Assembly (NCBI GenBank): GCA_903859225.1
Contig: CAIOLV010000001.1
Location: 1 to 31,568 of the forward strand
Source of the DNA: an uncultured bacterium
Lineage (GTDB): Bacteria; Bipolaricaulota; Bipolaricaulia; UBA7950; UBA9294
DNA length: 31,568 nt
Direction of reading: 5' to 3'
In this document: in pieces, positions 6,594-28,311 of the stretch
How the letters are laid out: every line of letters starts with the position of its first letter
How positions within the stretch are numbered: position 1 is the first letter of the stretch
The notes under the pieces: model-generated
Databases searched by the model: none
Told to the model about the DNA's origin: nothing
The model's input: only the letters and a program-made list of their open reading frames with translations
Program-made: the position numbers and the translations under genes

Positions 6594-6594
6594 C

Positions 6595-8241
6595 ATGCGT
6601 CGCCTGGCTCGCCGGGCGGTTGTCGTCGCCCTCGTGATGGTCGGGGTCGGTGGGTCGGCTCTCTTCGCGGCCGGCGTTGGCGGCGTCGTGTTCCTCGACA
6701 AGAACCACAACGGCGCCCTCGACAGCGGGGAGACAGGCGTGTCGGGCGCTGTCGTGAGCGATGGGTTGAACGTAGTGCGCACGGACGATGCGGGTCGGTT
6801 CTCGCTTCCAGACAACAACGGAGCACGGTTCGTTTTCCTCTCCACTCCGAACGGGATGAAGCCCTCGGCCGGTTGGTACCGCGCCGTCGCGGAGGGCGGC
6901 TCGTACGTATTCCCGCTGGAAACGCGCGACGAATCCGGCCCGCTCGTCTTTGCGCAGCTCTCGGACATTCACTACGCCCCGGACCCAGAGGCATTCTCCC
7001 GCGCGTTCGCGGATCGCGAGATGGCGTTCTTGCCCAACGGGACTCTCGATGGGCTCGTCGCCGAGATCAACCCCCTCGCGCCCGACTTCGTGATCCTCAC
7101 GGGCGACATCATCGCCAATGCGAAGGGGCCGGAGCTCGACGAGGTCAAGTCGTGGTTCACGACGATGGATGATGGGTTCGTGTCGCGATTCACGGTGCCG
7201 GTCTACGAGGCGATGGGGAACCACGACGAGGTGCGGGATCCGGCCGTGGACAAGGCAGTGTACGAAGATCACTTCGGCCCGACCTACTACTCGTTCAACG
7301 TGAAGGGCACGCACTGCGTCGTCCTCGATCTCCACCAGCTTCAGGGGACGTCCCAGATCTACTCGCTCAGCGCGGCGGAGCTTGACTGGCTGCGCCGGGA
7401 CCTGGCCCTGGTCGGTGCGAATGCGCCGATTCTCGTCTTCTGTCACGAGCCGACGCCCGACTGGGCACAGACGCCGGAGAACGCCGCGTTGTGGGACCTT
7501 CTCGCCGGCTCGAACATCACGGCGCTCCTGAACGGCCACTGGCACACGAACTTCGTCCTGCGTGAGGAGCCGTTCTACGAGCTCACGTCGGGCGCGGTCT
7601 GCGGTTCGTGGTGGGAAGGACCGAACCCGGACGGCACGGGCTTCGGGTACCGCATCTACGAGATGTCGCGGGGCCGACTAGCAAGCACGTGGCGCACGGT
7701 GGGAGCGAATGTCGTCTCGTTCACGTCCCCGACCGCGGCGGCTCTCACGTGGACCGACCGCCTGGTCGCCAGCGTATGGGGCGAGGCGGCGTCAGCGGCC
7801 TACTGCTGGGACGGCGGCGCGAACGTGACGATCGATGTCGCGTCGAACGGTCTCTGGAGCACGGCGGCCGGCAATCTGAACGTGGCAACGCTCCCGTCGG
7901 GCTACCACACGCTCACCATCACGTTCTCGATGACGAGTGGGGGACCGATCGTGGGTCGGCAGGCGTTCTACGTCTTCGTGCCGGGGCTGTCCCTCAGCGA
8001 TTTCATCGATCACCCCGAGGTGTTCCAGGGGAAAATGGTCGGGACGACGGCGCTCGAGGTGCGTGCCGTGATGGGAGCCGACATCTCGGCGACCGACGGC
8101 ACGAAGACCATCATCGTGGCTAAGTTCCCACTCTCGGTGGCGAAGGGAGATCGCGTTTCGGTGGTCGGCATGTACCGGGCGACGAGCGCGGATCCGATCA
8201 AGGCCTTTGACCTGATCTTCAGCGTCAAGCTTGCGAAGTAG
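6595..8241 (+). CDS. Secreted calcineurin-like phosphoesterase with N-terminal SdrD/CnaB-like domain and C-terminal extension
   Basis: Signal peptide MRRLARRAVVVALVMVG; GVVFLDKNHNG..D.GE.GVSGAVVSDG; binuclear motifs SDIH, TGDII, GNHD, CHEP, GHWH; CGSWWEGPNPDGT; SD GGGAGG; 548 aa. Confidence 0.85.
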   Translation: MRRLARRAVVVALVMVGVGGSALFAAGVGGVVFLDKNHNGALDSGETGVSGAVVSDGLNVVRTDDAGRFSLPDNNGARFVFLSTPNGMKPSAGWYRAVAEGGSYVFPLETRDESGPLVFAQLSDIHYAPDPEAFSRAFADREMAFLPNGTLDGLVAEINPLAPDFVILTGDIIANAKGPELDEVKSWFTTMDDGFVSRFTVPVYEAMGNHDEVRDPAVDKAVYEDHFGPTYYSFNVKGTHCVVLDLHQLQGTSQIYSLSAAELDWLRRDLALVGANAPILVFCHEPTPDWAQTPENAALWDLLAGSNITALLNGHWHTNFVLREEPFYELTSGAVCGSWWEGPNPDGTGFGYRIYEMSRGRLASTWRTVGANVVSFTSPTAAALTWTDRLVASVWGEAASAAYCWDGGANVTIDVASNGLWSTAAGNLNVATLPSGYHTLTITFSMTSGGPIVGRQAFYVFVPGLSLSDFIDHPEVFQGKMVGTTALEVRAVMGADISATDGTKTIIVAKFPLSVAKGDRVSVVGMYRATSADPIKAFDLIFSVKLAK

Positions 8242-8264
8242 GTTGTGCGCAGGGAGGTAGTGCG

Positions 8265-9539
8265 ATGAGACGAGCAATGGGGATGCTGGGCATGGCGGCG
8301 CTGTTCGCGGCCACGGCCGCGGTGTGCGCCGGAGCGGTGACGCTGCAGTTCCTGACGCCGGCTTGGCAGGAAGACACGGTGACCGAGGTCGAGAACATCG
8401 TCGCGGAGTGGAATGCGGCGCGGCCGGATATCCAGGTGGAGATGGTCTCGGTGGCGTGGGAGAACATCAACGACTACCTCCTCACGAGCTTCCAGGCCGG
8501 ACAGGGACCGGATGTGATCCACCAGGACACGGTCATGTGTTACGAGTATGGTGTCCAGGGGTACGCGGAGCCGCTCAACCAGTATCTCGATGCCGCGACG
8601 CTGGCCGATACGCCCCAGGCGAGCTGGGACGGTGTCAGCGACGATCAGGGAAGCATCTACGGCGTCCCATTCCTGCAGGAAACGCTGGTCGTCTTCTACA
8701 ACAAGGCGATGTTCGCCACAGCGGGGATCACTCCGCCGGCCGACGGGATGGTCACGTGGGCCGAGCTGCGGGACTACGCGCTCCGACTGACAAAGACGGA
8801 TGCGAGCGGTCAGACGACGACGTGGGGGCTCCTGGCGCCTCTCGAACAGCGGCTTTGGTGGTGCCTTGTTGCGCAAAACGGCGGACAGGTCCTCGCGAAA
8901 CATGCCGACGGCACGTGGTACGTCGAGATCGACCAGGCGGCCCGGCAGGCGATCGAGTACTACACCAACCTGATTACGGTGGACCACGTCATGCCGCAGG
9001 ACGTCCTGAGCTATGACTTCACGAGCCTGCTCCAGGGCTTCAAGACGGGCAAGTACGCAATGTTTACTTTCGGATGCTGGGTCCGGAGCTGGATCAACAA
9101 CCTGACTCAGAACCAACTCGACTGGGGAATGCTCGAGGTCAAGGGTCCGGTGCGCAATGTCACGGAATCCGACCCGCAGGGCGTCTTCATCTACTCCGGC
9201 TCGGCTCACAAGGACGAGGCGGCGCAGTTCCTGCTCTACTTCACCAACACCGAGAACCAGGCGCGCATCGCGAAGGCCGACTGGCTCTTCCCCATTCGCC
9301 AGTCGGCGCTCGCACGCCCGGAGTTTCGGACAACACAGGAACAGTGGAATGTCCTCTATCAATGGCTTCCGTTCGCGGAGGATGTGAAGCCGAAGATGTT
9401 CGGCTTCTTCGGCTGGGAATGGCAGTCATTTATCCCGCAGATTGAGCAGGTCATCCTTGGATCGAAGACCCTGGATAAGGCGCTGCAGGCGGCGACGGAC
9501 GATGGGAACGAGTACCTTCGCCGCATGGGACTTCAATAG
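8265..9539 (+). CDS. ABC transporter substrate-binding protein (CUT1 sugar/nucleoside family)
   Basis: Signal peptide; GQGPDVI, IYGVPF, VFYNKAMF, TWAEL, FKTGKYAMF; SD GGAGGT; permeases nearby; 424 aa. Confidence 0.92.
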   Translation: MRRAMGMLGMAALFAATAAVCAGAVTLQFLTPAWQEDTVTEVENIVAEWNAARPDIQVEMVSVAWENINDYLLTSFQAGQGPDVIHQDTVMCYEYGVQGYAEPLNQYLDAATLADTPQASWDGVSDDQGSIYGVPFLQETLVVFYNKAMFATAGITPPADGMVTWAELRDYALRLTKTDASGQTTTWGLLAPLEQRLWWCLVAQNGGQVLAKHADGTWYVEIDQAARQAIEYYTNLITVDHVMPQDVLSYDFTSLLQGFKTGKYAMFTFGCWVRSWINNLTQNQLDWGMLEVKGPVRNVTESDPQGVFIYSGSAHKDEAAQFLLYFTNTENQARIAKADWLFPIRQSALARPEFRTTQEQWNVLYQWLPFAEDVKPKMFGFFGWEWQSFIPQIEQVILGSKTLDKALQAATDDGNEYLRRMGLQ

Positions 9540-9626
9540 GAGAGAGACGAAGGAGGTGGTTCGGCGCGCGCAGAGGTTGGCTGGAAGGGGATGTCTAGAA
9601 GGCTTTCGAGGGGGAAGGAGGACCAC

Positions 9627-10148
9627 GTGAAGCGAACGTTATGTCTCGGTGTGCTCTTGGCCGCACTTGTGGGCGCCACGGTGTGGGCCACCGGCACGGT
9701 GCCGACGGGGGATGTCGTCCTGACGATTTCGGGGCCAATGATTCTGATGAATAGGTGGGACGCGGCAGCTGGTGCTGGCGTGTGCGACTTCGACATGGAC
9801 ATGCTGAAGGCCGTGCCTGTCACAACCTACACGGTCACCGATCCGTGGCTGGGCGAGAAGACCTATACGGGAGTCCGTCTGTCCGATCTGCTCAAGTGGA
9901 TTGCCGTGGACCAGTACGCGGTGAAGGTCGTCATTGTCTGCTCGGACGCGGCGGAATTCGTTATCCAGATTAAGGATGCGGCACAGTACCCGATCATGAT
10001 CGCGTATGCATCCAACAGCAAGGTTATCAAGGCGGGCTCCGGCGGCCCACTGAAGGTCGTGTACCCGTACCAGATCGAGGGCGTCGAAGCTCTCTACGGC
10101 CCCGATAACTGGGCATGGTACGTGGTTGGGATTCGCGTGGAGTACTAG
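9627..10148 (+). CDS. Secreted sulfite-oxidase/molybdopterin-binding-fold protein (COG3915-like)
   Basis: Signal peptide MKRTLCLGVLLAALVGATVWA; VVLTISG, FDMDML, TDPW, YTGVRLSDLL, GPLKVVYP, WAWYVVGIRVE; SD AAGGAGG before GTG 9627; 173 aa. Confidence 0.7.
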   Translation: MKRTLCLGVLLAALVGATVWATGTVPTGDVVLTISGPMILMNRWDAAAGAGVCDFDMDMLKAVPVTTYTVTDPWLGEKTYTGVRLSDLLKWIAVDQYAVKVVIVCSDAAEFVIQIKDAAQYPIMIAYASNSKVIKAGSGGPLKVVYPYQIEGVEALYGPDNWAWYVVGIRVEY

Positions 10149-10167
10149 GCGCAAAGGGCCTTTGGCT

Positions 10168-10194: not shown

Positions 10195-10248
10195 GCGAGA
10201 TCCACGCCATTGCCGGCGTGTCCGGCACGGAACACGGAGCGGGAACCT

Positions 10249-11292
10249 ATGCCGCGCAGCCAGAATGAGATGAAGATCGTCGAGCTTGTGGAGCTCGGAC
10301 GCGTGGAGACGCGGACGGCTCCGGTCCCGGTCCCGGGTCCGGGCGAGGCACGCCTGCGCGTGCGCGCCGTCGGACTCTGCGGCACGGATGTGAAGGCCTA
10401 CCGGCGCGGGCACCCCTATTTCAAGCCGCCGTGCGTGCTCGGCCACGAGGTCGTCGGAGCGATCGACGCCGTCGACGATGCGGTTCGAGGACTTGCAGTG
10501 GGCGAGCGCGTGGTCTGTGCGCCCTACGCGGAGTGCGGTGGGTGTCCGATCTGCCGCCGCGGCGTCGGCGAGCTGTGCGAGCACAAAGCATTCATTGCCG
10601 GCGCGCTGCAGGAGTACTTGATCCTCTCCGCCGACATCCTCGCCCGAGGCACGTTCCGCGTCGCGGGCGCGATGTCCGACGCCGTTGCGACCCTCGCTGA
10701 GCCACTGGCGTGCGCGATGAACGGCATCGAGCGGGCCGGCGTCCGGCGGGGCGACCGGGTTCTCGTTGTGGGTGGCGGTCCGATGGGCGCGCTGTTGGCC
10801 ATCGTCGCGCGGACGCTGTCTCCGCACGTCCTGGTGAGTGAAGTGAACCCGGCGCGCAGCGAGCATCTGCGGCGCCTCGGTCTCTCGGTCGTCAATCCCT
10901 CAGAAACGCCCCTCAGCGAAGCGCTGTCTCGGGCCTTCAGCGTGCCAGAAGCGGACCGGGTGTTGATCGCTGTCGGTGACCGCGGCGTGGCAGAGGATGC
11001 GATCGGGCTCACGGCAGCTGGAGGCACAGCGCTCCTCTTCGGCGGGTTGCCGAAAGGGGAGCGGTTGTCGCTCGACGCGTTTGCCATTCACTACCGTGAG
11101 GTGGGAGTCGTTGGGAGCTTTGGGTTCCAGGTTCGGCACTTCCGAAACGCCGTCGAGTGGATGGAGCAGCATCCCGGCGCGCTCGATGGAGTCGTCACGG
11201 CGTCGGTCCCCTTTGCCGAGGCCGCGCGGGCCTTTGTCGAGGCCGCACAACCTGATGGACTGAAGACGGTGATCCGGTTTGAAGAAGCCTAG
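10249..11292 (+). CDS. Zn-dependent medium-chain (polyol/sorbitol-type) dehydrogenase
   Basis: GLCGTD, GHE, structural Zn site CGGCPICRRGVGELC, EPLAC, GGGPMG; start at 10249 or 10270. Confidence 0.9.
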   Translation: MPRSQNEMKIVELVELGRVETRTAPVPVPGPGEARLRVRAVGLCGTDVKAYRRGHPYFKPPCVLGHEVVGAIDAVDDAVRGLAVGERVVCAPYAECGGCPICRRGVGELCEHKAFIAGALQEYLILSADILARGTFRVAGAMSDAVATLAEPLACAMNGIERAGVRRGDRVLVVGGGPMGALLAIVARTLSPHVLVSEVNPARSEHLRRLGLSVVNPSETPLSEALSRAFSVPEADRVLIAVGDRGVAEDAIGLTAAGGTALLFGGLPKGERLSLDAFAIHYREVGVVGSFGFQVRHFRNAVEWMEQHPGALDGVVTASVPFAEAARAFVEAAQPDGLKTVIRFEEA

Positions 11293-12169
11293 GCGGGAAC
11301 GCGCGGCGCGGTCGTACGTGGAGGAGAAGAGGGCCCTGCCGTTCGTGGCGCCCGCCCTCATCATCCTTTGCTTCGTGAGCCTATATCCTCTGGTTCAGGG
11401 GATCTCCCGCGTCCTGTACTCCTTCCGTGCGCTGACGGGGAAGAACGTCTACTCCGGGCTGCAGAACTTCGTCCTTCTCTTCCGCGATTCCGTCTTCGTT
11501 CACGCACTCCTGAACAGCCTCGTCTGGACCGTGACCAGTGTCGCGGCGATGTTCTTCGTGTCCTTTCTGCTGGCGACGATGCTCAACTCGCGGCATCTTC
11601 GCTTCCGTCGTGCGTTCCGGACCGTCACGCTCATTCCCTGGGCGCTGCCCGGCGTCGTCGTGTCGCTTATCTGGCGGTACATCTTCCTCTCCGGTGGGCC
11701 GCTCAACACCGCCCTTTCGGGACTTGGTGTGACCTACCCCCCGGCGTGGCTCATCGACCCGCACGTCGCCCTTTGGACGTGCATCGTCGCCAACATCTGG
11801 ATGGGAATTCCGTTCGTCACGATCATGATCCTCGCCGGGCTGCAGTCGCTCGAAGGAGACATTCTCGAGGCGGCGGCGATCGACGGCGCGAGCTACTTGC
11901 AGACGCAAGTGCGGATTGTTGTTCCGAGCATCAAGAAGGTCATTCTCATCATTCTCACGTTGGAGTCGATCTGGACCTTCAACTCGTTTGACATCGTCTT
12001 CGTCCTGACCAAAGGAGGACCGGCCAACGCGTCGATGACGCTCCCTCTCTACGCCTACACCTGGGCGTACGGCTCTCAGCAGGCCGGATACGGCGCGGCG
12101 ATCGGCATCATCATGCTGCTCATCTTGCTGAGCGTCGTCGTCCTCTACATTCGCGAGGTGCTGCAATGA
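11279..12169 (+). CDS. ABC permease (MalF/UgpA-like)
   Basis: Hydrophobic helices; EAA loop ILEAAAIDGAS; FDIVFVLTKGGP; start uncertain (TTG 11279 or GTG 11318). Confidence 0.9.
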   Translation: MKKPRRERAARSYVEEKRALPFVAPALIILCFVSLYPLVQGISRVLYSFRALTGKNVYSGLQNFVLLFRDSVFVHALLNSLVWTVTSVAAMFFVSFLLATMLNSRHLRFRRAFRTVTLIPWALPGVVVSLIWRYIFLSGGPLNTALSGLGVTYPPAWLIDPHVALWTCIVANIWMGIPFVTIMILAGLQSLEGDILEAAAIDGASYLQTQVRIVVPSIKKVILIILTLESIWTFNSFDIVFVLTKGGPANASMTLPLYAYTWAYGSQQAGYGAAIGIIMLLILLSVVVLYIREVLQ

Positions 12170-12993
12170 GGATGCATCCGGTCAAGCAAGTCCTCCTCCA
12201 CGTCGCGGTTCTCGTGATGATCGCCTTCCTCGTGTTCCCCGTCCTCCTCCTCGTGTTCAACTCCCTCAAGACGCAGACCCAGATCTTCGCGTCTCCGATG
12301 GGGATTCCACACGGCGTGACCTGGGACAACTTCCGCACGGTCATTGCAGGGGGCACGTTTCTGGTCAACCTTCGGAACTCGGTCATCGTCGCGTTCTCGA
12401 CCGTAATCCTCGCCGTCATCGTGACCGCGCCGGCCGGCTACGCCCTGTCGCGGTTCAAGTTCCGTGGGCGGACGGCGTTCTCGATGTGGCTCCTGGCGAC
12501 TCAGGCGTTTCCCGGAATCATCATGGTGCTTGGGCTGTTCACCGTGTTGAAGGTGTACGGACTGATCAACCAGCTGCCGGGGCTCGTGATCATGCACACG
12601 AGCTTTGCTCTTCCGTTCTCGATTTGGCTCCTCAAGGGGTACTTCGACAAGATCCCGATTGACCTGGAGGAGGCGGCGAGGATCGACGGCTGCACGCGCC
12701 TACGGGCGCTCGTGAGCATCATCCTGCCGCTCTCCGTGCCCGGTCTCCTGGCGGTGGCCACGTTCTCGCTCCTCCTGTCGTGGAATGAGTTCTTCTTCGC
12801 CCTCGTCATCATGCGCACGAACGAGAGCTGGACGTTGCCGGTATACCTCGCTCGATTCCTCGGATCAGGTGGCGTCGTACAATGGGGGCCGCTGTCGGCG
12901 GCTGCGCTGCTCGTCACGATCCCCGTGTTCATCCTCTTCCTCTTGGGACAACGGTATCTCGTTTCGGGACTGACGGGAGGGGCCATCAAGTGA
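12166..12993 (+). CDS. ABC permease (MalG/UgpE-like)
   Basis: GYALSRFKFRG, EAA loop LEEAARIDGC, SWNEFFFAL; ATGA overlap. Confidence 0.93.
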   Translation: MRMHPVKQVLLHVAVLVMIAFLVFPVLLLVFNSLKTQTQIFASPMGIPHGVTWDNFRTVIAGGTFLVNLRNSVIVAFSTVILAVIVTAPAGYALSRFKFRGRTAFSMWLLATQAFPGIIMVLGLFTVLKVYGLINQLPGLVIMHTSFALPFSIWLLKGYFDKIPIDLEEAARIDGCTRLRALVSIILPLSVPGLLAVATFSLLLSWNEFFFALVIMRTNESWTLPVYLARFLGSGGVVQWGPLSAAALLVTIPVFILFLLGQRYLVSGLTGGAIK

Positions 12994-14045
12994 CAGGTAC
13001 CGAACCTCTCGGCCGAATCGGAGTGGTTGCAAATCCTTGTGCAGGCGCCGGGCCGGACGTCCTCCGTGCCGTGCTCTCCGGCCTGTTCAGCCGCCTTCGC
13101 GAGGGTGACGTCGTGCTGAACGAGCGGACGTTCGAGGCCGCGGAGGCCGACGCCTGCGGGCTCGAGTGCACGAAGGTCCATGGACCGGCGGGCGATGCGC
13201 GACGTCTCACCGAGGCGCTGCTGGCCGCGGGCGTAGAGACCGTGATCGGCGTCGGGGGCGACGGGACACTGGGCGAGATCGCGACGGCGCTCGCGCTCGG
13301 CGAGAACGGCGTGCGGCTCTTGGGCATCGGAATCGGGTCATCGAACGTCGGCCCGCTGGTCGGAGCTTCGTTCGGAGAGCTGGACGCGTTCTTCGACGCT
13401 CCGTGGGTTGGCGTCGCGGTGCACGCGCTCGACGTCCGCGTGGGCGGGACGCAGGTGGGAATGGCGTTCCACGACGCGGGCCCCGCAAACACCTACTTTG
13501 GCACCCGGAACGGCCGCAGAGTGGATCTGGACGCAGCGGCCGCACTGCACGGCATCGATCGGCCGGCCGAGCCGGCGTCGGTTTGCGGCGCGGGGACCTG
13601 GATTGCGAAGAACGGTCGGAGGTGTCTATCGGGGCAGGAGACGGCAGGCGGCCAAATCGTCGCTTCGCCGCTCAACGATGTCGGCGAGTGCCGCGGCAAA
13701 GCGGTGAGCGGTTTCCTGTGCTGGGGACCGTATGTCGGGTGCCGTGGGGTCGTCGCCGTGTCGAGCGCGGTGATGATCCGCACCCGGCTGTCGCGTGAGG
13801 ACCTTTGCGCGGCGGAGCCGCTCCGGCTGTTCCATCTTGGGCTCGCCCCGGAGGACGTCGTCGAATTCGGCGGGCTCCCGCGTGGCGCGGTCGTCGTGGT
13901 GGACGGGACGCCGCGCCTCGAGCTGGCGCCGGAGATGACGGTATCCATTCGCGCCTTGGAGGGTGCCGTCGTCTCGATTCGTCGGGAGTCGGGGCGCGTG
14001 GACGTGAGCATGAAGGAGGAGGGATGCAATACCGCGGGATCGTGA
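12990..14045 (+). CDS. NAD-kinase / diacylglycerol-kinase-fold protein (AcoX-like), substrate unknown
   Basis: IGVVANPCAG and GVGGDGT motifs, GSSN; GTGA overlap with the permease stop; SD GGGAGG; 351 aa. Confidence 0.65.
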   Translation: MTGTEPLGRIGVVANPCAGAGPDVLRAVLSGLFSRLREGDVVLNERTFEAAEADACGLECTKVHGPAGDARRLTEALLAAGVETVIGVGGDGTLGEIATALALGENGVRLLGIGIGSSNVGPLVGASFGELDAFFDAPWVGVAVHALDVRVGGTQVGMAFHDAGPANTYFGTRNGRRVDLDAAAALHGIDRPAEPASVCGAGTWIAKNGRRCLSGQETAGGQIVASPLNDVGECRGKAVSGFLCWGPYVGCRGVVAVSSAVMIRTRLSREDLCAAEPLRLFHLGLAPEDVVEFGGLPRGAVVVVDGTPRLELAPEMTVSIRALEGAVVSIRRESGRVDVSMKEEGCNTAGS

Positions 14046-14938: not shown

Positions 14939-14952
14939 GGGCGGGAGGCTCG

Positions 14953-19725: not shown

Positions 19726-21052
19726 GCGGATCGTGCTCGGGGCAGCGGTTCTCGCGGGCGCGGACGCGTCCCTGCGACTGGATTGCGGCGTGCTGATCGA
19801 AGGCGCGCGGATCGTCGCCGTGGGCCCGAACGCCCAGTTGACCGCTCACGCGGGCGATGCCGAGATCCTCGACGCGCGCGACCTCATTCTCTGCCCCGGA
19901 TGGGTGAACGCCCATCATCACGCTTACGGCCTTCTCGCCCACGGAATCCCGATCGCGGGCGACGCGCCTCGCGGGTTCGACCGCTTCCTTTCCGACCTCT
20001 GGTGGCCGCGCGTCGAGGATCGGCTTGACGGGAGCATGATCGAGGCGGCGATGGCGGTCTCGTGCGCCGACATGATTCGCTCGGGGTTCACGGCGTTTTG
20101 TGACGTCCTGGAGGCGCCGCTGGCCGGGACGGGCGTTCTCGACCTCGAAGCGCGCGCCGTCGAACGCGCCGGGTTGCGGGCCGCCCTCTGCCTTGAGGCA
20201 TCGGAGCGACATGGCGCCGAAGTTGGCCGGCAGGCGCTGTGGGAGAACGAGCGGTTCGCCCGGGAGCGTGGGCGCGACGGACTCGTTCGCGGGATGCAGT
20301 GCCTTCACACGAGCTTCACCTGCTCGGAGGGGTTTGTGCGCGCGGCGAAGGAGAGCGCGGCCCGCGCCGGCTGCGATCTGCATCTTCACCTCTCGGAAAG
20401 CGCCTACGAGCCAAAGGAGTGCCTGCGGCGTCACGGCGTGCGCCCGGTTCACTGGTACGACCAACTGGGGTTCTGGGACGAGACGGTGCTGGCTTCGCAG
20501 GTCGTGGCGGTGACCGACGACGAGATCGCGCGGCTCGCCGAGCGTCGCGTCCGCATCGCCCACATGCCGCTCTCGAACTGCGAAGTAGGAGGAGGCATCG
20601 CGCCCATCCCGCAGATGATCGAGCGCGGCCTCGAACCAGGACTCGGAACCGACGGGTACATCAACGATCCGTTCGAAGTGATGCGCGGCGCGTTCCTCCT
20701 CCACAAAGGGGCGGCGCGAGATGCGTCGGTGATGCCGGCGCGGACGGTGCTGGGCATGGCGACGGCGTGGGGCGCCCGGGCGATCGGGTTTCCCGAGGCG
20801 GGAGCCCTCGCGCCGGGGCACCCGGCCGACCTCATCGGAATCGACGACGCTCCGGGCACGCCGCTCACAGCAGACAACGTCGCGGACCAGCTCGTTCTCT
20901 TCCGCGGGCGCGGCGACGTCAAGCTGACGATCGTGGCCGGTCGAGTGCTCTTCCGTAACGGAGTGGTCGAGACGATGGACGAAGGAGCCGTCCGAGCGGC
21001 CGCGCGCCTCGAAGTGGCGCGACTCTGGGCGGGAAGGGGGCGCGGTGGTTGA
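19718..21052 (+). CDS. Amidohydrolase (SsnA / guanine-, MTA- or pterin-deaminase-like)
   Basis: PGWVNAHHH, HLHLSE, GLGTDG, G.L.PG.PADL; 444 aa. Confidence 0.88.
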   Translation: MDRRIVLGAAVLAGADASLRLDCGVLIEGARIVAVGPNAQLTAHAGDAEILDARDLILCPGWVNAHHHAYGLLAHGIPIAGDAPRGFDRFLSDLWWPRVEDRLDGSMIEAAMAVSCADMIRSGFTAFCDVLEAPLAGTGVLDLEARAVERAGLRAALCLEASERHGAEVGRQALWENERFARERGRDGLVRGMQCLHTSFTCSEGFVRAAKESAARAGCDLHLHLSESAYEPKECLRRHGVRPVHWYDQLGFWDETVLASQVVAVTDDEIARLAERRVRIAHMPLSNCEVGGGIAPIPQMIERGLEPGLGTDGYINDPFEVMRGAFLLHKGAARDASVMPARTVLGMATAWGARAIGFPEAGALAPGHPADLIGIDDAPGTPLTADNVADQLVLFRGRGDVKLTIVAGRVLFRNGVVETMDEGAVRAAARLEVARLWAGRGRGG

Positions 21053-22100
21053 TCTGCGAGTCGACCTTGCCGGCCTCACGCTCGTGAATCCGCTTGTGCT
21101 GGCGTCGGGCCCTCTGTCGTGGAACGGTGACGCGATCGTCCGCGCGCACTGCGCCGGAGCGGCGGCGATCGTGACGAAAACGATCCGCCGCGCTGCGGCG
21201 CGTTCGCCGCGGCCGCACATCGCCGCAACTCCTCACGGGGTTCTGAACACGGAGCGTTGGTCGGACCTCGAAGCGAGGCAGTGGATCGACCACGAGATCC
21301 CGCGAGCGAAGGACGGGGGCGCAACGGTGATCGCGAGCCTGGGACTCGCCGTGGACGACGTCGTGGCGCTGGCCGAAGAACTCGAGCGGGCAGGAGCCGA
21401 TGCCCTCGAGGTCGTGTCGTACGACGAGGCCGTCCTCCCGAGCATGGTGAGCGCAGCGGTCGAGCGAGTGCGGATCCCCGTGCTTGCGAAGCTTGGCGTC
21501 AACGGGTGCGATCTCGCAGGCACCGCGCGACGGTGCGCCGAATCCGGCGCGAGCGGCATCACGGCGATCGACTCCGTCGGCCCGACGTTGCGCGTCGACC
21601 TCGCGCGTCGCCGCCCCGTTCTCGGAGCAGATTCCGCATGGTGGTCCGGTCCGGCGATCCTGCCGATCGCGCTGCACGCCGTGCACGTCCTCCGCGGCGC
21701 CGTCGCCGTGCCCATCGTGGGGACGGGGGGCGTGGCGGATGCAGACGCGGCGATCGAGATGCTGTTCGCCGGGGCCAGCGCCGTCGGGCTGTGCAGCGCT
21801 CCTCTCGTTGAGGGCCTCGGCGTCTTTTCGCGGATGCGCGAGCGGATGGCACAGCGTTTGGACGAGCTCGGCATCGCGTCCGCCCATGATGCGATCGGCG
21901 CGATGGAACGAGAGACTGCCGCGGGGTTCGCAATGGCGTTGGACGATGCGGCGTGCACGCACTGTGGCGCCTGCGTTCGGGTCTGTCCATACGCTGCGCG
22001 GCGAGGTCCTGGCGTCGTCGAAGCCGCGTGCCGCGGCTGCGGGTTGTGCGTCTCCATCTGCCCGGCAGGCGCGCTGGCGTGGGAAAGGGGTGAACGATGA
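21045..22100 (+). CDS. Dihydroorotate/dihydropyrimidine dehydrogenase (PreA)-like FMN barrel with C-terminal 2x[4Fe-4S]
   Basis: NPLVLASGP, VTKT, SGPAILP, IVGTGGV, AGASAVG; CTHCGACVRVCP and CRGCGLCVSICP; 351 aa. Confidence 0.85.
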   Translation: MVDLRVDLAGLTLVNPLVLASGPLSWNGDAIVRAHCAGAAAIVTKTIRRAAARSPRPHIAATPHGVLNTERWSDLEARQWIDHEIPRAKDGGATVIASLGLAVDDVVALAEELERAGADALEVVSYDEAVLPSMVSAAVERVRIPVLAKLGVNGCDLAGTARRCAESGASGITAIDSVGPTLRVDLARRRPVLGADSAWWSGPAILPIALHAVHVLRGAVAVPIVGTGGVADADAAIEMLFAGASAVGLCSAPLVEGLGVFSRMRERMAQRLDELGIASAHDAIGAMERETAAGFAMALDDAACTHCGACVRVCPYAARRGPGVVEAACRGCGLCVSICPAGALAWERGER

Positions 22101-23425
22101 TCCTTGTGCGGGGAGCCTCGTACGTCGTGCGCGATGCCGATCGCGTCGAGCGGGATGTGGACGTTCTCATCGACGGAGATCGCATAGTCAAGGTGGGCCA
22201 CGTCGACATCCGCCGCCTCGCGCCGGACACGGAGATCCTCGAAGGCCGCGGCCGCGCGCTGGTACCGGGGTTCGTCAATGCGCATACCCACCTGTATCAG
22301 TCCATGCTCAAGGGGCGGCGCGACGATCTCTCGCTCGTCGACTGGTGCGAGCAGGTCACGTTCCCGTTCGTTCGCCGTGTGCTCGACGATGCGTGGCACC
22401 ATGGGCGCGTCGAGGTCGGACGCCTTTGGTCGTCCCTAGCGGCCATCGAGATGATCCGCAGCGGGATCACGACGTTCGTCGACATGGACATGGACCTCGA
22501 CGGCGTGATCTCGGCGTGGGTCGAGATCGGCATCCGCGGTGTCGCGGCGATGGAACTCGTCGATCGTTGGGTGCCGCAGGACCTGATGCTGTCGCTCGAG
22601 AGGACCAAGGACGACGCACGGCGTCTGATCGAGACGTGGCACCGGGTTCCGAGAGAGAGCCCGCTCGTGACCGTGTTCCTCGGCCCGTCGGCGCCGTTCA
22701 CGTCGAGCGACGACCTCTTGCGGTTCATCCGTGACGAGGCCGATGCGCACGATCTCGGGATCCAGACGCACGTGTCGGAGACGGCGTGGGAGGTCGACGA
22801 GTCGGTGCGGCGGACCGGCAAGACGCCGCTCGCTTACCTCGAGTCGATCGGCTTCCTCACGAGTCCGATCACGGCCGCGCACTGCGTCCACCTGACCGAG
22901 GGTGAGATCGAGCTTGCGGCGCGGCGCGACGTCGCCGTGATCTACAACCCGAAGAGCAACATGAAGCTTGGGAGCGGCATCGCGCCGATCGTCGCCCTGC
23001 AACGAGCCGGAGCGACGATCGCGCTCGGCACGGACGGCGCGGCGTCGAACGACCTCCTCGACCCGTTCGAGGAAATGCGCGCTGCGGTGCTCTTGCAGAA
23101 GGTGGCGGCGGGCGATCCGACGGCGCTTGGGGCGCGGGACGCCTTCCGCTTCGCCACCGAAGGCGGGGCGCGCGCGTGCCGGATCGACGCAGGCACGATC
23201 GATGAGGGGCGGCTCGCCGACCTTGTCCTCATCGACCTCGGCGAAGCACACCTCTTCCGCCTGACGGACGAGATCGTGCCGGCGCTCGTGTACTGCGCGC
23301 GGGCGGACGACGTCGAATCCGTCGTCGTCAACGGGCGGCTGGTGATGAAGGAGAGACGGATGTTGACGGTGGACGAGCGGGCTGTGTTGGCCGAAGCGAA
23401 GAGAGTGGGTGAACGATATGCGTGA
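22097..23425 (+). CDS. Amidohydrolase (MtaD/TrzA-type nucleoside or base deaminase)
   Basis: PGFVNAHTH, PSAPFT, HVSET, AHCVH, NPKSNMKLGSG, LGTDGAASND, G..ADL; ATGA overlap; 442 aa. Confidence 0.9.
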   Translation: MILVRGASYVVRDADRVERDVDVLIDGDRIVKVGHVDIRRLAPDTEILEGRGRALVPGFVNAHTHLYQSMLKGRRDDLSLVDWCEQVTFPFVRRVLDDAWHHGRVEVGRLWSSLAAIEMIRSGITTFVDMDMDLDGVISAWVEIGIRGVAAMELVDRWVPQDLMLSLERTKDDARRLIETWHRVPRESPLVTVFLGPSAPFTSSDDLLRFIRDEADAHDLGIQTHVSETAWEVDESVRRTGKTPLAYLESIGFLTSPITAAHCVHLTEGEIELAARRDVAVIYNPKSNMKLGSGIAPIVALQRAGATIALGTDGAASNDLLDPFEEMRAAVLLQKVAAGDPTALGARDAFRFATEGGARACRIDAGTIDEGRLADLVLIDLGEAHLFRLTDEIVPALVYCARADDVESVVVNGRLVMKERRMLTVDERAVLAEAKRVGERYA

Positions 23426-24827
23426 AGACCTGACCGGGGCGATGGCGCGGATCGTCGGAGAGGCGAACGTCTCCGACCGGCTCGTCGATCGGATCTGCTA
23501 CTCGCGGGACTGCGGGCCGGACCCGGCGGGCATTCCCGCCGTCGTGGCGCGACCGTCGACGACCGAGGAAGTGGCCGCCGTGCTCCGCTGGGCGGACGAG
23601 CACCGCCACGCGCTGTACACGCGCGGCCGGGCCACGACGTTTCTCGGCAGCGGTGTGAAGGAAGGCGTGATCTTGCTCGATACGACGCGGATGAATCGGA
23701 TCGAGCGGATCGATACGGCGGCCGGCTATGTCGACGTCCAGGCGGGTGCCATCTGGCATGGGATCGACGCCGACCTTCGTCGTGTCGGGTGGGAACTCGG
23801 CGTTCCCGGAGGCGGCGGGCTGTTCTCGTGCACCATCGGCGGCACGGTAGCCGTGAACGCGATCCCGCACGGCGCGACCGAGTACGGGATGACGGGCGAC
23901 CATGTCCTCGCGCTGGAGGTCGTCCTCGCGAACGGCACCGTCATTCGCACGGGTTCCTGGGCCAATCCTGCGTCGGAGCCGATTGAGCGCAACGCCAACG
24001 GCCCTGACTTCGCCGGCCTCTTCATCGGCTCGTACGGGATCCTCGGCGTGATCACGCGGGTCGTCTACCGGATTCGCCGCGCGCCCGAGTCCGAACTCTT
24101 CCGGTTCTACGCGTTTGACGACTACCGCGACCTCGTGGCCGCGGCGGGCGGGATCCAGGGACGCGGCGCGGCGACGTTCCTCGTCGGTCTGTTCGGCGGG
24201 CCGAAGCCCGCGGGAGAAGAGGGAGATGCATTCTTTCACGTGATCGTTCGCGATCGCTCCGCGGTGGCTGAGGGTCGCATGCATGAAGCGGAGGCGATCG
24301 CCGAGTCCCACGGCGGACGTCCGCGTCCGGCCGAAGGGACGCGCCACTACTGGCAGGAGCACATGTACTCGTGGCTCCGTAATACGGGACCGAGCGCGTA
24401 CTACAGCGATCGACCGTTCTTCTGCCCCGAGGTAGCGGGGTTCGTCTCGACGCCCGGACTGGCGGACGCCGTCGCCCTCTTCCGGACGATGAGAGCCGAG
24501 CGAGAGGCCGAGTTCGAGCAATACGGGATCCGCGTCAAGGGAGTTGACGCCTACTTCGCGCGCAACGGCGCGTACCTGTGGATCGACACGCTCTACGACG
24601 AGCGGCGATAGGACGCCTGGGAGTACGGAATGCGGCTGCGGGGCGAGATCGCGGAACGGATGTTCACGGAAGGCAGGATGAGCCCCGGAGGTCTCGGCGC
24701 CGGGATCTCTCCGCACATCATGCCGAAGCTCGGAACGGCCTACGACCTACTGCGCTCGACGAAGCGCATGCTCGATCCGAACGGAATTCTGAATCCCGGA
24801 CTGCTGGTCGAGGAGGGTGCGCAATGA
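23418..24827 (+). pseudogene. GlcD-like FAD-binding oxidoreductase interrupted by one in-frame TAG (24609-24611)
   Basis: YSRD, AVVARP.T.EEV, CTIGGTVAVNA, LEVVLANG, LFIGSYGILGVIT; after the TAG the same frame continues 71 codons to the family C-terminus KRMLDPNGILNPG and an ATGA overlap with the next gene. Confidence 0.7.
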
Positions 24828-25963
24828 AGCTCGCCGAGTACAAGAACCAGATCTACAGCTGTCTCCGCTGCGGCTTCTGCTTCGACCATGAGGTCGGGAG
24901 CCAGGCGAAGATCTGCCCGTCGCACGTGACGTACGGGATGGAATCCTTCGGGGCACGCGGCAAGCTCGCCATCGCGCGGGCGCTGGTCGATGAGGCGATC
25001 GAGTACGACAGCGACGTTGCACAGCGCGTCTACGCTTGCACCGAGTGTGGCGCCTGCGAAGAGCAGTGCTTCAAGTACCTCGACCTCCTCGGCATCTACC
25101 GTGCGATGAAGGGCGAACTCGCCGAGCGAGACCTCGTGCCGACGGCGCTTGCTGACGTCGCGCGCGCCGCAGAGCGGGAGGGAAACCCCTACGGCCAGGC
25201 GGCGGGGAAGCGCCTCGACTGGGCGCCGGGAAGGGAACGTGTGGGCAAGAAGGCGGAGACCGTCTTCTTCGCCGGATGCACACCGTCCTACCTGCGACGC
25301 GGGATCGCCCGCGGCGCGTACCAGCTCCTCGAGGCGGGCGACGTCGACTTCGGCCTGCTCGCAGAGGAAGTCTGCTGTGGGCATCCGTCCTACGTTGCCG
25401 GGGACCTCGCCGGCGCACGCGCCGCCGTGGCGAGGAATGTGGAAGCGATCGAGCGGTCGGGTGCGACGCGCGTTGTCTTCGCCTGCCCGGGATGCCTCGC
25501 GACCTTCCGCGACGAAGCGCCGGAACTCCTCGGCCGGCCGCTTCCGTTCGAGGCTGTGCACGTGACGGAACTGCTCACCGAGCGGCTGGCTGCGGGATGG
25601 CGCTTGCGCAAGCAATCGCGGGTGGTGACGTACCACGACCCGTGCAACCTCGGGCGAGGCCTCGGGATCTACGACGCCCCGCGGCGTGTCATCGACGCGG
25701 TCCCCGGCGTGCGGCGAACGGAGATGCGCCGGACGATGGCGAGGTCGTTCTGCTGCGGCAACGGGGGATTCGTCCGCTTCGGCTACGAGCCCATGGCGAT
25801 CGAGAACGAAGCGACGCGGCTCGAGGAGGCTGTGGCAACGGGGGCCGACCTCCTCTTGTCGGCCTGTCCGGCGTGCCAGATCGCGTTCCTCGACGCGAAG
25901 AGGCGCGCGAAGGCGGCGATTGAGGTCCTCGACATCGTGGAGTGGCTGGCGACGGCACTGTAG
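24824..25963 (+). CDS. GlcF/HdrD-like Fe-S oxidoreductase (2x[4Fe-4S] plus CCG domains)
   Basis: CLRCGFC..CP, CTECGACEEQC, EVCCG, YHDPCNLGR, FCCG, SACPAC; 379 aa. Confidence 0.9.
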   Translation: MKLAEYKNQIYSCLRCGFCFDHEVGSQAKICPSHVTYGMESFGARGKLAIARALVDEAIEYDSDVAQRVYACTECGACEEQCFKYLDLLGIYRAMKGELAERDLVPTALADVARAAEREGNPYGQAAGKRLDWAPGRERVGKKAETVFFAGCTPSYLRRGIARGAYQLLEAGDVDFGLLAEEVCCGHPSYVAGDLAGARAAVARNVEAIERSGATRVVFACPGCLATFRDEAPELLGRPLPFEAVHVTELLTERLAAGWRLRKQSRVVTYHDPCNLGRGLGIYDAPRRVIDAVPGVRRTEMRRTMARSFCCGNGGFVRFGYEPMAIENEATRLEEAVATGADLLLSACPACQIAFLDAKRRAKAAIEVLDIVEWLATAL

Positions 25964-25975
25964 GACGGAGGCGAG

Positions 25976-27328
25976 ATGGCGACGAGCGAAGCATGGGCCG
26001 CGGAGCTTGCGGCACGGTGGCGGGTCGAGACGGCGTCGGGTGTGATCGTCTATCCCACGTCGGCGGCCGTCGGGGCGATGGAAAACCTCGGCGTCGACAT
26101 GAGGGAGGCCGCGCCCCTGCTTCGTGACGCCGAGGACGCCTTCGCCCGGCGTGACTGGAGCCGCCTCGCGACGGCGCTCGCTCGTGTGAACGGCGTCATT
26201 GCCGCTCGATTGCCGTCCGTGCGGGAGGGCGAGCCGGAGACGTGGGACGAGTACCGCGCGACCGTGCCGGGCGGGGCGCCGGGGCGGGCGCGCTCCGGCG
26301 TGTCGAGCGGAGCGTCGACGGCGGCGCGTTCGGGCATGCCCGTCGACTACGATGATCGCGTGCGCGGAGCCTGGATCGGCAAGTGCATTGGTACTGCGCT
26401 CGGCGATCCGGTCGAGGGCTGGACGAGGGAACGGATCGCCGCCGAGCACGCGCCGATCTCCGGCTACCTCGTGCCGCCGAAGGTCGAGAACGACGACACG
26501 GCGTACCCCATCCTCGTGTTGCACGCGCTGGACGAGCACGGCACAGGGTTCACGAGCGCCGACCTCGCTCTCGAGTGGGTCGCTCATCTTCCGCTCGCGT
26601 TCACCGCGGAGTGGTCGGCGATCGAGAACGTGAAGGCCGGCGTCCTGCCGCCGGACAGCCGATGGGTAAGGAACCCTTGCGGCGCATGGGTCGGCGGGCA
26701 GATGCGAACTGAGATCCATGGGCTGCTCGCGCCGCTCGATCCCGAGCGCGCCGCGGAGTGGGCCTTCCGCGACGCGGTCATCTCGCACTACCGCGAAGGC
26801 ATGGACGGTGCCATCTTCACCGCCGCCGTCACGAGCCTCGCGTTCTCCGGGGAACCGACGGAGACTCTCATCCGCGCGGCCCTTCGCTACGTCCGTCCTG
26901 GAGGCGCGTTCGCGGCAACCGTCGAGCGGACGCTCGACGCCTGCAAACGCCACGGAGACTGGCGTCGGGTCCTGGACGAACTGCGCCCCGATCTCGATCG
27001 CTTCCATTGGATCCACACGCTGCCGAACATCGCCTGTGCCGTAACGGGGCTTGTTCTCGGAGAGCGGGACTTCGAGCGCTCGATCCTGACGACGCTGCAA
27101 TGTGGGTACGACACCGACTGCTCGGCCGGGCAGACGGCGGCGCTGCTTGGTTGCCTGCTCGGTGCGCGCGGGATTCCCGACAAGTGGAGTCGTCCGATTG
27201 GTCAACGACTCACATCGTACGTCGTAGGTTTCGAGGAGATCGAGTTCGAGAAGCTCATCGCGTGGACGACGGGGTGGGGATCGATTCTGGCAGGAGAGCG
27301 CAGTTCGTGGAAGGGGGACGTCGCATGA
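25976..27328 (+). CDS. ADP-ribosylglycohydrolase family protein
   Basis: RVRGAWIGKCIGTALGDPVEG, NDDT, FTAE, GQMR, DA.ISH, HTLPN, GYDTDC..Q.A...G; ~120-aa N-terminal extension; SD GGAGG; 450 aa. Confidence 0.85.
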   Translation: MATSEAWAAELAARWRVETASGVIVYPTSAAVGAMENLGVDMREAAPLLRDAEDAFARRDWSRLATALARVNGVIAARLPSVREGEPETWDEYRATVPGGAPGRARSGVSSGASTAARSGMPVDYDDRVRGAWIGKCIGTALGDPVEGWTRERIAAEHAPISGYLVPPKVENDDTAYPILVLHALDEHGTGFTSADLALEWVAHLPLAFTAEWSAIENVKAGVLPPDSRWVRNPCGAWVGGQMRTEIHGLLAPLDPERAAEWAFRDAVISHYREGMDGAIFTAAVTSLAFSGEPTETLIRAALRYVRPGGAFAATVERTLDACKRHGDWRRVLDELRPDLDRFHWIHTLPNIACAVTGLVLGERDFERSILTTLQCGYDTDCSAGQTAALLGCLLGARGIPDKWSRPIGQRLTSYVVGFEEIEFEKLIAWTTGWGSILAGERSSWKGDVA

Positions 27329-28311
27329 TTGTCGTGCTCGGGAGCGCCAACATGGATGTCGTCACCGAGGTCGCGCGGATGCCGCGCCCGGGCGAGACCG
27401 TTCCCGGGAAGGCGCTGCGCTACTACCCCGGCGGCAAAGGAGCGAACCAGGCGGTCGCTGCCGCGCGCCTCGGCGGCCCAGTCTCGTTCTGCGGAGAGGT
27501 CGGTCGAGACGCGTTTGGCGAGCGACTCCTCGACGCGATGCGAGCCGACGGCGTCGACGTGAGTGGGGTCGAGATCGCAGCGGACGCGGCGACCGGCACG
27601 GCGTCGATCTGGGTCGAAGACGGCGGCGAGAACGCGATTGCGTGCGTTCCCGGCGCGAACGGCGCCGTCGATCGAGCGTACGTAGACCGCATCCTCGCGC
27701 GCATCGCCGCGGCGGACGTGCTTCTCTTGCAGCTCGAGATCCCGCTCGACACGGTGGCGTACCTCTTGAGGCGGCTGCCCGGTGGGCGGCCGCTCGTGAT
27801 CCTGGATCCCGCGCCGGCGCGCGAGTTGTCGGGCCTTCCGCTTGACCGCATCGACGTGCTGACGCCGAACGAGACGGAACTCCGAGCGATCACGGGGATT
27901 GCGGATCCGGCGCTCGCCGCGCGCAGCCTTCTCGAACGCGGGGTCCGCGCCGTCGTGTGCAAGGCGGGCGAACGCGGCGCGATCTGGTTCGGCGTCTCGG
28001 CAACGCGCGTGCCGGCATTCCGAGTCCGCGTCGTCGACACGACGGCGGCCGGCGATGCGTTCAACGGGGCGCTGGCCGTCGCGCTGACGGATCGTCCACT
28101 CCACGATGCGGTTCGTTTTGCCAACGCGGCAGGCGCTCTGGCCACGACGAAACGCGGTGCGCAGCCTTCGCTGCCGCGTCGTGCCGAGGTCGAGGAACTG
28201 CTCGCTGCGTCTGTCGCTGCTCAGGGGACGGCGGAGCTCGCGACGAAGCGGCCCCAGCCTGGGCCGGTGGGAAACTCCCCGTCCGCGAAGACACAACGCC
28301 CGCGGACGTAG
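27325..28311 (+). CDS. rbsK: Ribokinase (PfkB family)
   Basis: GSANMD, PGGKGANQAVAAARLG, PNETE, DTTAAGDAFNG, GAQPSLP; ATGA overlap; ~30-aa C-terminal tail overlaps the convergent gene. Confidence 0.9.
   Translation: MIVVLGSANMDVVTEVARMPRPGETVPGKALRYYPGGKGANQAVAAARLGGPVSFCGEVGRDAFGERLLDAMRADGVDVSGVEIAADAATGTASIWVEDGGENAIACVPGANGAVDRAYVDRILARIAAADVLLLQLEIPLDTVAYLLRRLPGGRPLVILDPAPARELSGLPLDRIDVLTPNETELRAITGIADPALAARSLLERGVRAVVCKAGERGAIWFGVSATRVPAFRVRVVDTTAAGDAFNGALAVALTDRPLHDAVRFANAAGALATTKRGAQPSLPRRAEVEELLAASVAAQGTAELATKRPQPGPVGNSPSAKTQRPRT

Follow-up and report, generated by a model that had tools for sequence, protein, structure and literature searches.

The question raised by this locus is what relatives of the tetrahydromethanopterin (H4MPT) enzymes Ftr and Mch are doing in a bacterium of a lineage that seems to be unable to make this cofactor. 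The window analyzed here is the entire largest contig (CAIOLV010000001.1; 31,568 nt) of a metagenome-assembled genome (MAG) of 1.07 Mb, which is ~68% complete and has a GC content near 0.67. Close homologs of the window proteins belong to MAGs labeled Candidatus Bipolaricaulota or Acetothermia. The genes for the Ftr-like formyltransferase and the Mch-like cyclohydrolase lie within an uninterrupted run of + strand genes (4852-28311), most of which overlap or abut each other, and all the features described below are on this strand unless indicated otherwise. A sequence-only reading of this region had proposed that the genes from 6595 to 28311 serve the scavenging and dismantling of methanopterin-like coenzymes. 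The gene starts were assigned by inspection of start codons, and the gene classes by Pfam and NCBIfam scans, which showed that all of the classes named in that reading are present on the + strand within its interval. The data point, tentatively, to a LacI-controlled accessory island, which would import and degrade an exogenous pteridine cofactor with a ribityl-ribose-phosphate tail, with methanopterin or sarcinapterin from archaeal neighbors as the best candidate; we give this interpretation a somewhat less than even chance of being correct.

The Ftr-like protein (14024-14938) matches both Pfam domains of its family, FTR (PF01913, E = 3e-22) and FTR_C (PF02741, E = 9e-19), with full-length coverage, and the Mch-like protein (14953-15966) matches Pfam MCH (PF02289, E = 8e-49) over profile positions 5-309 of 311. 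The NCBIfam equivalog cut-offs were not reached by the Ftr-like protein (153.5 vs 292.6 and 165.3 vs 297 bits for TIGR03119 and NF002554, respectively) or by the Mch-like protein (143.9 vs 228.8 bits for TIGR03120). The identity to solved enzymes is ~35% for the Ftr-like and ~25% for the Mch-like protein, as compared to the 45% identity between the bona fide bacterial FhcD and archaeal Ftr (PMC6926001). The catalytic glutamate of this family is Glu245 in Methanopyrus kandleri Ftr and Glu252 in FhcD (PMC6926001), and E248 of the Ftr-like protein, which aligns with it, is invariant in 19 members of its clade. Additionally, 14 of the 16 alignment columns that are at least 85% conserved in other full-length Ftr-family representatives are unchanged. 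In the Mch-like protein, R194 and E197 form an R-x-x-E motif, which aligns with the 1QLM and 4FIO chains; in a set of 19 sequences, E197 does not vary and R194 has a conservation of at least 90%. The Arg/Glu catalytic pair is presumably the one numbered R183/E186 in archaeal Mch. The Ftr family as a whole has 241 representatives at E ≤1e-3 among 1.84 billion proteins; the Ftr-like sequences make up a distinct small clade with three full-length 50% clusters, and this catabolic-island clade is a noticeable share of the family diversity. The characterized members of the Ftr and Mch families act on H4MPT. The island proteins share with the enzymes of the H4MPT C1 pathway of methanogens and methylotrophs (1FTR, 1M5S, 6S6Y_D, 1QLM, 4GVQ) the full-length Pfam domains, the catalytic residues and similar lengths, while they differ from them in their low identity and in that their genes belong to an island for import and catabolism instead of a C1 pathway. 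They are divergent paralogs, which look like functional enzymes whose ligand, or the environment of that ligand, has changed.

The C1 metabolism of the carriers was compared with this assignment. The search for RFAP (ribofuranosylaminobenzene 5′-phosphate) synthase, which catalyzes the first committed step of H4MPT synthesis, gave no match in any of the 121 phylum genomes searched (62 of high quality), and the controls were positive in the expected archaea. Mtd and Fae were not found in five carriers of the island (four of them at least 90% complete), and the search for FwdA/FhcA in five carriers gave no match above the family cut-off and only weak, sub-threshold amidohydrolase matches. The lack of these enzymes from the genomes searched means that the Ftr-like and Mch-like proteins cannot serve an endogenous H4MPT pathway, and therefore that their H4MPT-type ligand, if they have one, must be external. 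On the folate side, formyltetrahydrofolate synthetase (FTHFS) was found in all five carriers tested, and both FolK and FolP (dihydropteroate synthase, DHPS) are encoded in this MAG and in 42 of 42 genomes belonging to the carriers' family, which shows that the carriers use folate in their C1 metabolism and synthesize pterin themselves. Because they synthesize folate, the degradation of an imported pterin is a more plausible purpose than its salvage as a vitamin. Folate or pterin auxotrophy as a motive for salvage, an idea taken from earlier work (PMC13408713), is weakened by the same FolK and DHPS counts.

To define the extent of the island, homologous loci were collected from contigs of the relatives and from a scan of a genome collection, and all window proteins were compared to them using tblastn. 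The search with the Ftr-like protein returned ~75 full-length relatives with 46-99% identity, and the next match was an ordinary archaeal Ftr with 34% identity. The data showed that an order of 17 genes, from LacI to ribokinase together with two aldehyde:ferredoxin oxidoreductases (AORs), is kept in at least 16 independent loci, with protein identities of 40-94%. This conserved order is LacI, aldolase, phosphoesterase, solute-binding protein (SBP), PruR-like protein, alcohol dehydrogenase (ADH), permeases, kinase, Ftr, Mch, deaminase, GlcD, GlcF, ADP-ribosylglycohydrolase (ARH), PfkB, AOR and AOR; with the same order in this many independent loci, the arrangement is not due to chance. The pair of AOR genes changes position between genomes, and the pair of genes encoding an SsnA-like protein and a dihydroorotate dehydrogenase (DHOD)-like protein is present only in a subset of the loci (the window, L010, L011, L013, L018, L026 and L027). 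The gene for the LacI-family repressor (4852-5850; Pfam LacI and Peripla_BP; syntenic in nine loci) and that for the aldolase (5847-6593) are also syntenic with the rest of the island in other genomes, and the unit thus starts ~1.7 kb before 6595. Hence, the gene content of the operon proposed earlier is upheld, while its start has to be moved upstream. The Mch-like gene was found in 11 of the 121 phylum genomes searched, all of one family, and such a patchy distribution suits an accessory catabolic island. The record titles of the carrier loci name lake, wetland, seep, vent and deep-mine sediments, which are compatible with the presence of H4MPT producers, in a set that has no control group.

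A link to pterins comes from the secreted PruR-like protein (9627-10148), which has 173 residues with a signal peptide. In phmmer searches it matched the PruR structures 7RKB (E = 1.7e-11) and 7KOS (4e-10), and the seven top Foldseek matches of its AlphaFold2 model (pLDDT 79) were all PruR structures (E ~1e-8, root-mean-square deviation ~2 Å), ahead of the sulfite oxidases whose fold they share. The residues D72-P73-W74 (the DPW motif), W162 and W164 are invariant in the window protein and 13 orthologs, and a tryptophan takes the place of the cysteine ligand of molybdenum, as it does in PruR. PruR binds tetrahydromonapterin and neopterin experimentally (PMC11194511). In the A. tumefaciens numbering the pterin is sandwiched between Tyr104 and Trp160 and hydrogen-bonded by Asn102 (PMC11194511), and the invariant W162 or W164 could supply the sandwiching tryptophan. 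The sequence and the modeled fold thus argue that this is a true PruR homolog, in line with the pterin-binding fold that had been suggested for it, and that it likely binds a pterin. In comparison with the PruR proteins of Proteobacteria (PMC11194511; 7KOS, 7KOU, 7RKB, 7KOM, 7KP2), it is the same small secreted sulfite-oxidase fold standing alone, but it comes from Bipolaricaulota, and its gene lies between that of an ABC transporter SBP and catabolic genes, with a dehydrogenase gene as neighbor, instead of being paired with a DcpA-type c-di-GMP enzyme. The transporter consists of a CUT1-type SBP (SBP_bac_1) with a signal peptide (8265-9539; Pfam), which is 58-94% identical across 13 loci and has sugar and oligosaccharide binders as its nearest solved structures, and of two permeases (11279-12169 and 12166-12993; both Pfam BPD_transp_1). 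The Pfam and NCBIfam scans revealed no ABC ATPase encoded in the island.

The other modules of the island suggest what the rest of the substrate could look like. The metallophosphoesterase (6577-8241; Pfam MetallophosN and Metallophos) has a hydrophobic N-terminus, by which it is predicted to be signal-anchored outside the cell, and its nearest solved structure is the class III phosphodiesterase Rv0805, consistent with the phosphodiester specificity previously assumed for it. The ARH-family hydrolase (25976-27328; Pfam ADP_ribosyl_GH, PF03747) scored 164.7 bits against a cut-off of 26.2 and reached no equivalog; the nearest solved structures are MJ1187 and the ARH of T. thermophilus. Enzymes of this family hydrolyze alpha-linked ribosyl bonds. 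The PfkB kinase encoded next to it (27325-28311) passed the equivalog cut-off of ribokinase (TIGR02152; 307.6 vs 299.65 bits), so that its earlier annotation stands, and the combination of an ARH with a true ribokinase implies a ribose-containing substrate. The third module comprises a Zn-dependent polyol-type dehydrogenase (10249-11292; Pfam ADH_N and ADH_zinc_N), for which polyol and threonine dehydrogenases are the nearest NCBIfam families, a putative kinase of the NAD-kinase/DAGK fold (12990-14045), recognized by a weak Pfam DAGK_cat match and by structure and feature matches to DAGK_cat/NAD_kinase clusters in the ESM Atlas, and the DhnA-type class I aldolase of the ADH-synthase/archaeal fructose-bisphosphate (FBP) aldolase/LsrF group (Pfam DeoC). 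The aldolase gene has a GTG start preceded by a GGAGG site, and its product, which scored 203 bits against the PRK07226 cut-off of 241, is nearest to the MJ0400/ADH-synthase and archaeal FBP-aldolase group. Both AORs (15953-17815 and 17812-19725) match AFOR_N and AFOR_C at E-values of 1e-55 to 1e-125, and neither reached the specific equivalogs of AOR and GAPOR. As a side observation, the ~125-residue N-terminal extension of the ARH (25976-26350) has no Pfam match and is kept in the islands of Bipolaricaulota, where the ARH is 421-442 aa long, and the 332-aa ARH of the more distant locus L007 is without it.

Methanopterin is built of a pterin, an aminophenyl-1-deoxyribitol arm, an alpha-linked ribofuranose-5-phosphate and a phosphodiester to hydroxyglutarate, and we infer that it is the one known metabolite that uses all of these modules. 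In the proposed path, the anchored phosphodiesterase-type enzyme would remove the phosphodiester-linked end group outside the cell, the PruR-like protein would hold the pterin head, and the CUT1 SBP with the two permeases would take up the glycoside-like remainder with the help of an ATPase whose gene lies outside the island. Inside the cell, the ARH-family hydrolase would cut the alpha-ribofuranoside and the ribokinase would phosphorylate the released ribose. The polyol dehydrogenase, the NAD-kinase-fold kinase and the DhnA aldolase would turn the 1-deoxyribityl arm into a ketose, phosphorylate it and split it into dihydroxyacetone phosphate (DHAP) and an aryl-acetaldehyde, which the two AORs could oxidize with ferredoxin. 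The core made up of the Mch-like protein, the Ftr-like protein and the deaminase would open or remove the formamidine or formyl carbon and deaminate the heterocycle, and the SsnA-like amidohydrolase (19718-21052; Pfam, NCBIfam), the DHOD/PreA-like flavoprotein with two [4Fe-4S] clusters (21045-22100; Pfam, NCBIfam) and a dihydropyrimidinase could continue the breakdown of the ring in some genomes, including this one. Finally, the GlcD-like protein and its partner, a GlcF/HdrD-like Fe-S protein with CCG domains (24824-25963; two Pfam CCG and one Fer4_8), may oxidize the released 2-hydroxyacid or cleave a C-N bond, a step that would be broken in this genome. A broader scenario, which we consider possible but rather doubtful, is that fermentative Bipolaricaulota feed on methanopterin-class cofactors from methanogens and anaerobic methanotrophic archaea (ANME), with variant gene sets in Atribacterota and Hadarchaeota-like archaea, and that paralogs of Ftr and Mch were moved from C1 energy metabolism to cofactor catabolism and PruR-type extracellular capture was put to use for an ABC importer.

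Divergent forms of the island were compared to see which parts belong together. The part common to the variants is the Ftr-like and Mch-like proteins with a deaminase-type amidohydrolase of the TRZ/ATZ group (22097-23425; Pfam Amidohydro_1, cog0402), whose gene lies beside the Mch-like gene in all of them, Atribacteria included. The Atribacteria variant (L003:1-20642 and L004; 50% identity) encodes an Ftr-like protein, two Mch-like proteins, two deaminases and two Bmp-type ABC systems, together with a DAO-type oxidase, an HcnABC/sarcosine-oxidase-like set and a thiamine pyrophosphate-dependent E1 alpha/beta pair. The Bmp-family SBP encoded beside its Mch-like protein matched RfuA, the riboflavin binder of T. 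pallidum (4IIL), at 7e-42, compared to only about 1e-12 for the nucleoside binders PnrA (4e-12) and BmpD. This favors a pteridine-like ring with a ribityl group over a nucleoside as the likely ligand, and a nucleoside-type Bmp transporter in this variant was rejected on the same grounds. Loci L007 and L029 (46-47% identity) contain the Ftr-like protein, a DUF2193 Fe-S protein and PfkB, and L007 additionally an ARH, an FGGY kinase, a metallophosphoesterase, two Mch-like genes and a deaminase. The DUF2193 gene sits between those for the Ftr-like protein and PfkB (L007:5003-6472; L029:2695-4164), and DUF2193 denotes a family of archaeal Fe-S proteins (PMC12375889), to which the literature found ascribes no function. 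L029 is labeled Hadesarchaea and has a DDE transposase alongside. An even more distant locus (L032:1-14037; Ftr ~33% identical) encodes a CUT1 transporter, Ftr, a short-chain dehydrogenase, Mch, a phosphoribosyl-pyrophosphate-synthetase-like protein, a Zn-ADH and a DeoC aldolase, next to a three-subunit molybdoenzyme of the xanthine-dehydrogenase (XDH) family. Thus L032 and L007 repeat the logic of the island. On the other hand, in a related Bipolaricaulota genome (L033:1926-14841) only the Ftr-like gene and a translationally coupled PfkB gene, whose product is 69% identical to the window ribokinase, are present between flanks of the window type (a POR gamma subunit, an ADP-forming acyl-CoA synthetase, an aminotransferase and a YfcE-like esterase on the left; a PKD protein and an AOR on the right); this locus is either a minimal version of the island or what is left of it after decay.

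Several observations weigh against the assignment to methanopterin. The Ftr-like and Mch-like proteins are well below the equivalog cut-offs, and their ligand may differ from H4MPT; the canonical partner of Ftr is methanofuran, and no equivalent formyl acceptor is evident for the Ftr-like protein. The core deaminase has an MTA/SAH (methylthioadenosine/S-adenosylhomocysteine) deaminase and an 8-oxoguanine deaminase as its nearest solved structures (4F0R at 1e-65 and 7WW2 at 6e-56) and reached no equivalog cut-off, and judging from such similarities the deaminases are nearest to the MTA/adenosine and 8-oxoguanine types and not to a known pterin deaminase. The positions of Asn102 and Tyr104 of PruR align to S106-D107-x-x, so that these contacts are not obviously kept, and the similarity to RfuA is as compatible with flavins as with pterins. 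LacI is closest to ribose and nucleoside repressors. The Atribacteria variant is without ARH, ribokinase, phosphoesterase and polyol module, and its substrate may differ; together with L033 it shows that the ribose and ribityl modules are dispensable for the core, and the reduced island of L033, with its Ftr-like protein and PfkB, is unexplained by the proposed model. Moreover, every substrate in the path was assigned from homology at the level of families. Finally, the gene for the GlcD-like FAD (VAO-type) oxidoreductase (23409-24827) contains an in-frame TAG (24609-24611), which is either a nonsense mutation or a sequencing error, and the gene is broken or mis-sequenced. The nearest relative, L010, has AAG at this position and 11 others have various sense codons, and the homologs are intact with 468-472 aa. 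Pyrrolysine insertion or readthrough was rejected, since the sense codon varies in these 12 relatives and TAG is the normal stop of 10 of the 21 genes here. In the GlcD-like protein only FAD_binding_4 was detected, with no FAD-oxidase_C cap domain (111 vs 568 bits for the GlcD equivalog), which agrees with the weak point conceded in the sequence-only reading, that the usual 2-hydroxyacid metal site is lacking.

On balance, the observation behind that reading is confirmed and its interpretation is partly supported. Of the roles given to Mch, Ftr and the deaminases in handling a C1-loaded pterin, the families, the catalytic residues and the membership in the cog0402 amidohydrolases hold, while the scores far below those of the equivalogs, the missing formyl acceptor and the affinities of the deaminases do not speak for them. 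For the mapping of the whole operon onto methanopterin, the PruR homology, the RfuA-like SBP in Atribacteria and the lack of an endogenous H4MPT pathway are in its favor, and the deaminase affinities, the missing acceptor and the broken GlcD-like gene are not. The new data thus raise the odds of the methanopterin idea without proving it.

The evidence on the deaminases could also be explained by catabolism of a purine or modified nucleoside. In that case an imported riboside would be deaminated by the TRZ/ATZ enzyme, the Mch-like protein would open the imidazole or pyrimidine ring carbon, the Ftr-like protein would handle the formamide, possibly passing the formyl group to tetrahydrofolate, ARH and ribokinase would take the ribose, and the SsnA-like, PreA-like and dihydropyrimidinase proteins the remnants. 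This would agree with the relation of the deaminases to MTA/SAH, 5′-deoxyadenosine and 8-oxoguanine deaminases, with a repressor nearest to the RbsR, CytR and PurR types (best NCBIfam match RbsR, under the cut-off), with the bona fide ribokinase and the PfkB gene that repeatedly adjoins the Ftr-like gene, and with FTHFS in each of the five carriers tested. Haloarchaeal Mch homologs have also been proposed to use tetrahydrofolate (PMC8305020). Besides the SsnA-like and PreA-like genes, a dihydropyrimidinase/hydantoinase-type amidohydrolase gene adjoins the island on the opposite strand (28221-29573, −; TIGR02033, 389 bits vs a cut-off of 393), as it does in L008 and L024. However, the SsnA/PreA module is found only in a subset of the islands, the transport side consists of a sugar-type CUT1 SBP and the PruR-like protein, with an RfuA-like and not PnrA-like SBP in Atribacteria, and there is no standard nucleoside phosphorylase or hydrolase in the island. 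A nucleoside substrate would also leave the conserved polyol dehydrogenase, kinase, DhnA aldolase and two AORs without a role, and we consider this explanation unlikely.

The similarity of the Atribacteria SBP to RfuA raises the question of whether the substrate could be a ribityl-flavin-type cofactor (riboflavin, FMN or FAD, 6,7-dimethyl-8-ribityllumazine, or F420/FO). In such a pathway FAD or F420 would be split outside the cell by the phosphodiesterase, the ribityl arm would be cut by the dehydrogenase, the kinase and the aldolase, the AORs would oxidize the formylmethyl product, and the amidohydrolases would attack the pyrimidinedione ring. The presence of a phosphodiesterase-type esterase and the conservation of the ribityl-type module, with its polyol dehydrogenase, kinase, class I aldolase and AORs, are consistent with it, and the GlcD/GlcF-like pair could oxidize the lactate from F420. 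However, flavins lack an exocyclic amino group on which the core deaminase could act and, except for the adenosine of FAD, an O-linked ribose for ARH and ribokinase, Ftr and Mch have no known link to flavins, and the homologs of PruR bind pterins. The Treponema importer RfuABCD (4IIL), whose SBP is a close homolog of the Atribacteria one, serves vitamin uptake and not catabolism, and the window island has the CUT1 SBP and the PruR-like protein instead. A flavin-type substrate appears improbable. That there is no single pathway, and that two or three unrelated operons (for ribose or polyol utilization, a nucleobase module, and an orphan Ftr/Mch pair with an unknown housekeeping role) merely stand side by side, would agree with the variable position or presence of the AOR pair and the SsnA/DHOD module, with the retention of only the Ftr-like protein and PfkB in L033 and with the Ftr/Mch/deaminase core being all that the Atribacteria variant carries, but it is very improbable given the mostly overlapping or abutting genes on one strand (5847-28311), the full order kept down to 40-55% identity, the recurrence of Ftr, Mch, polyol dehydrogenase, aldolase and CUT1 at ~33% identity in L032, and a patchy presence (11/121) as expected of an accessory catabolic island.

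The methanopterin island proposed here was also compared to other known systems. The aerobic pterin and lumazine cluster of Cupriavidus sp. LA-1 (PMC12391406), in which the deaminase acts first and feeds purine-type intermediates, would be similar in being a dedicated pteridine-degradation cluster with a deaminase of the amidohydrolase superfamily, a likeness that presumes a pteridine substrate here. It is different in that its oxic route, with a Mo-containing lumazine dehydrogenase, an isomerase and a prenylated-FMN decarboxylase, acts on simple pterins without a ribityl-ribose tail, and in that the cluster is without Ftr/Mch, ARH, ribokinase, polyol module and AOR. The polyol module follows the logic of another kind of pathway, in which a 1-substituted sugar or polyol is converted to a ketose phosphate and then to DHAP and an aldehyde. 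In the salvage of 5-deoxyribose and of 6-deoxy-5-ketofructose phosphate this is achieved by a kinase, an isomerase or dehydrogenase, and an aldolase, while the island has a kinase of the NAD-kinase fold, a polyol dehydrogenase instead of the isomerase, and AORs for the aldehyde. The island is built from known families as a substrate-specific import and catabolic unit, which is not previously described in the literature found; the searches returned no report of methanopterin catabolism, nor of orphan Ftr or Mch in Bipolaricaulota, Atribacterota or Acetothermia.

Anoxic sediments, digesters and seeps are sites of abundant production of methanopterin, F420 and similar cofactors, and we know of no organism or pathway that consumes them. 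If the methanopterin assignment is correct, the island would represent the first pathway for the degradation of an archaeal C1 cofactor, and a form of cross-feeding that is new for methanogenic sediments. It would also explain the Ftr and Mch genes of bacteria that are unable to make H4MPT, correct the automated annotations by which they would pass as evidence of a methanogen-like C1 metabolism, give PruR-type pterin binders a role outside signaling, and provide a marker gene set for the recycling of necromass cofactors by abundant uncultured subsurface phyla. Even with another pteridine or a flavin as the substrate, this would be a widespread, conserved and uncharacterized pathway with clear biochemical candidates, and the island makes archaeal cofactor cross-feeding directly testable.

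The regions next to the island were also inspected. The Rfam scan of the window gave no RNA element, and no inverted-repeat operator was found in the region upstream of LacI (4650-4900). The left flank (3-4692) encodes a POR gamma subunit, an ADP-forming acyl-CoA synthetase, a class I/II aminotransferase and a YfcE-like phosphodiesterase, a block that is kept in L033 and that, together with the AORs, suits the fermentation of 2-oxoacids and aryl acids. The last of these genes, encoding a YfcE-like cytoplasmic metallophosphoesterase (3922-4692; Pfam Metallophos_2), adjoins the island in L010, L015 and L033 and is possibly part of the unit. On the right, two long open reading frames on opposite strands overlap (29299-31152, +, and 28221-29891, −), and the domain positions suggest that the dihydropyrimidinase starts near 29573 and a PKD-domain protein near 29900. 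The window ends with a partial third AOR gene (31181-31567, −).

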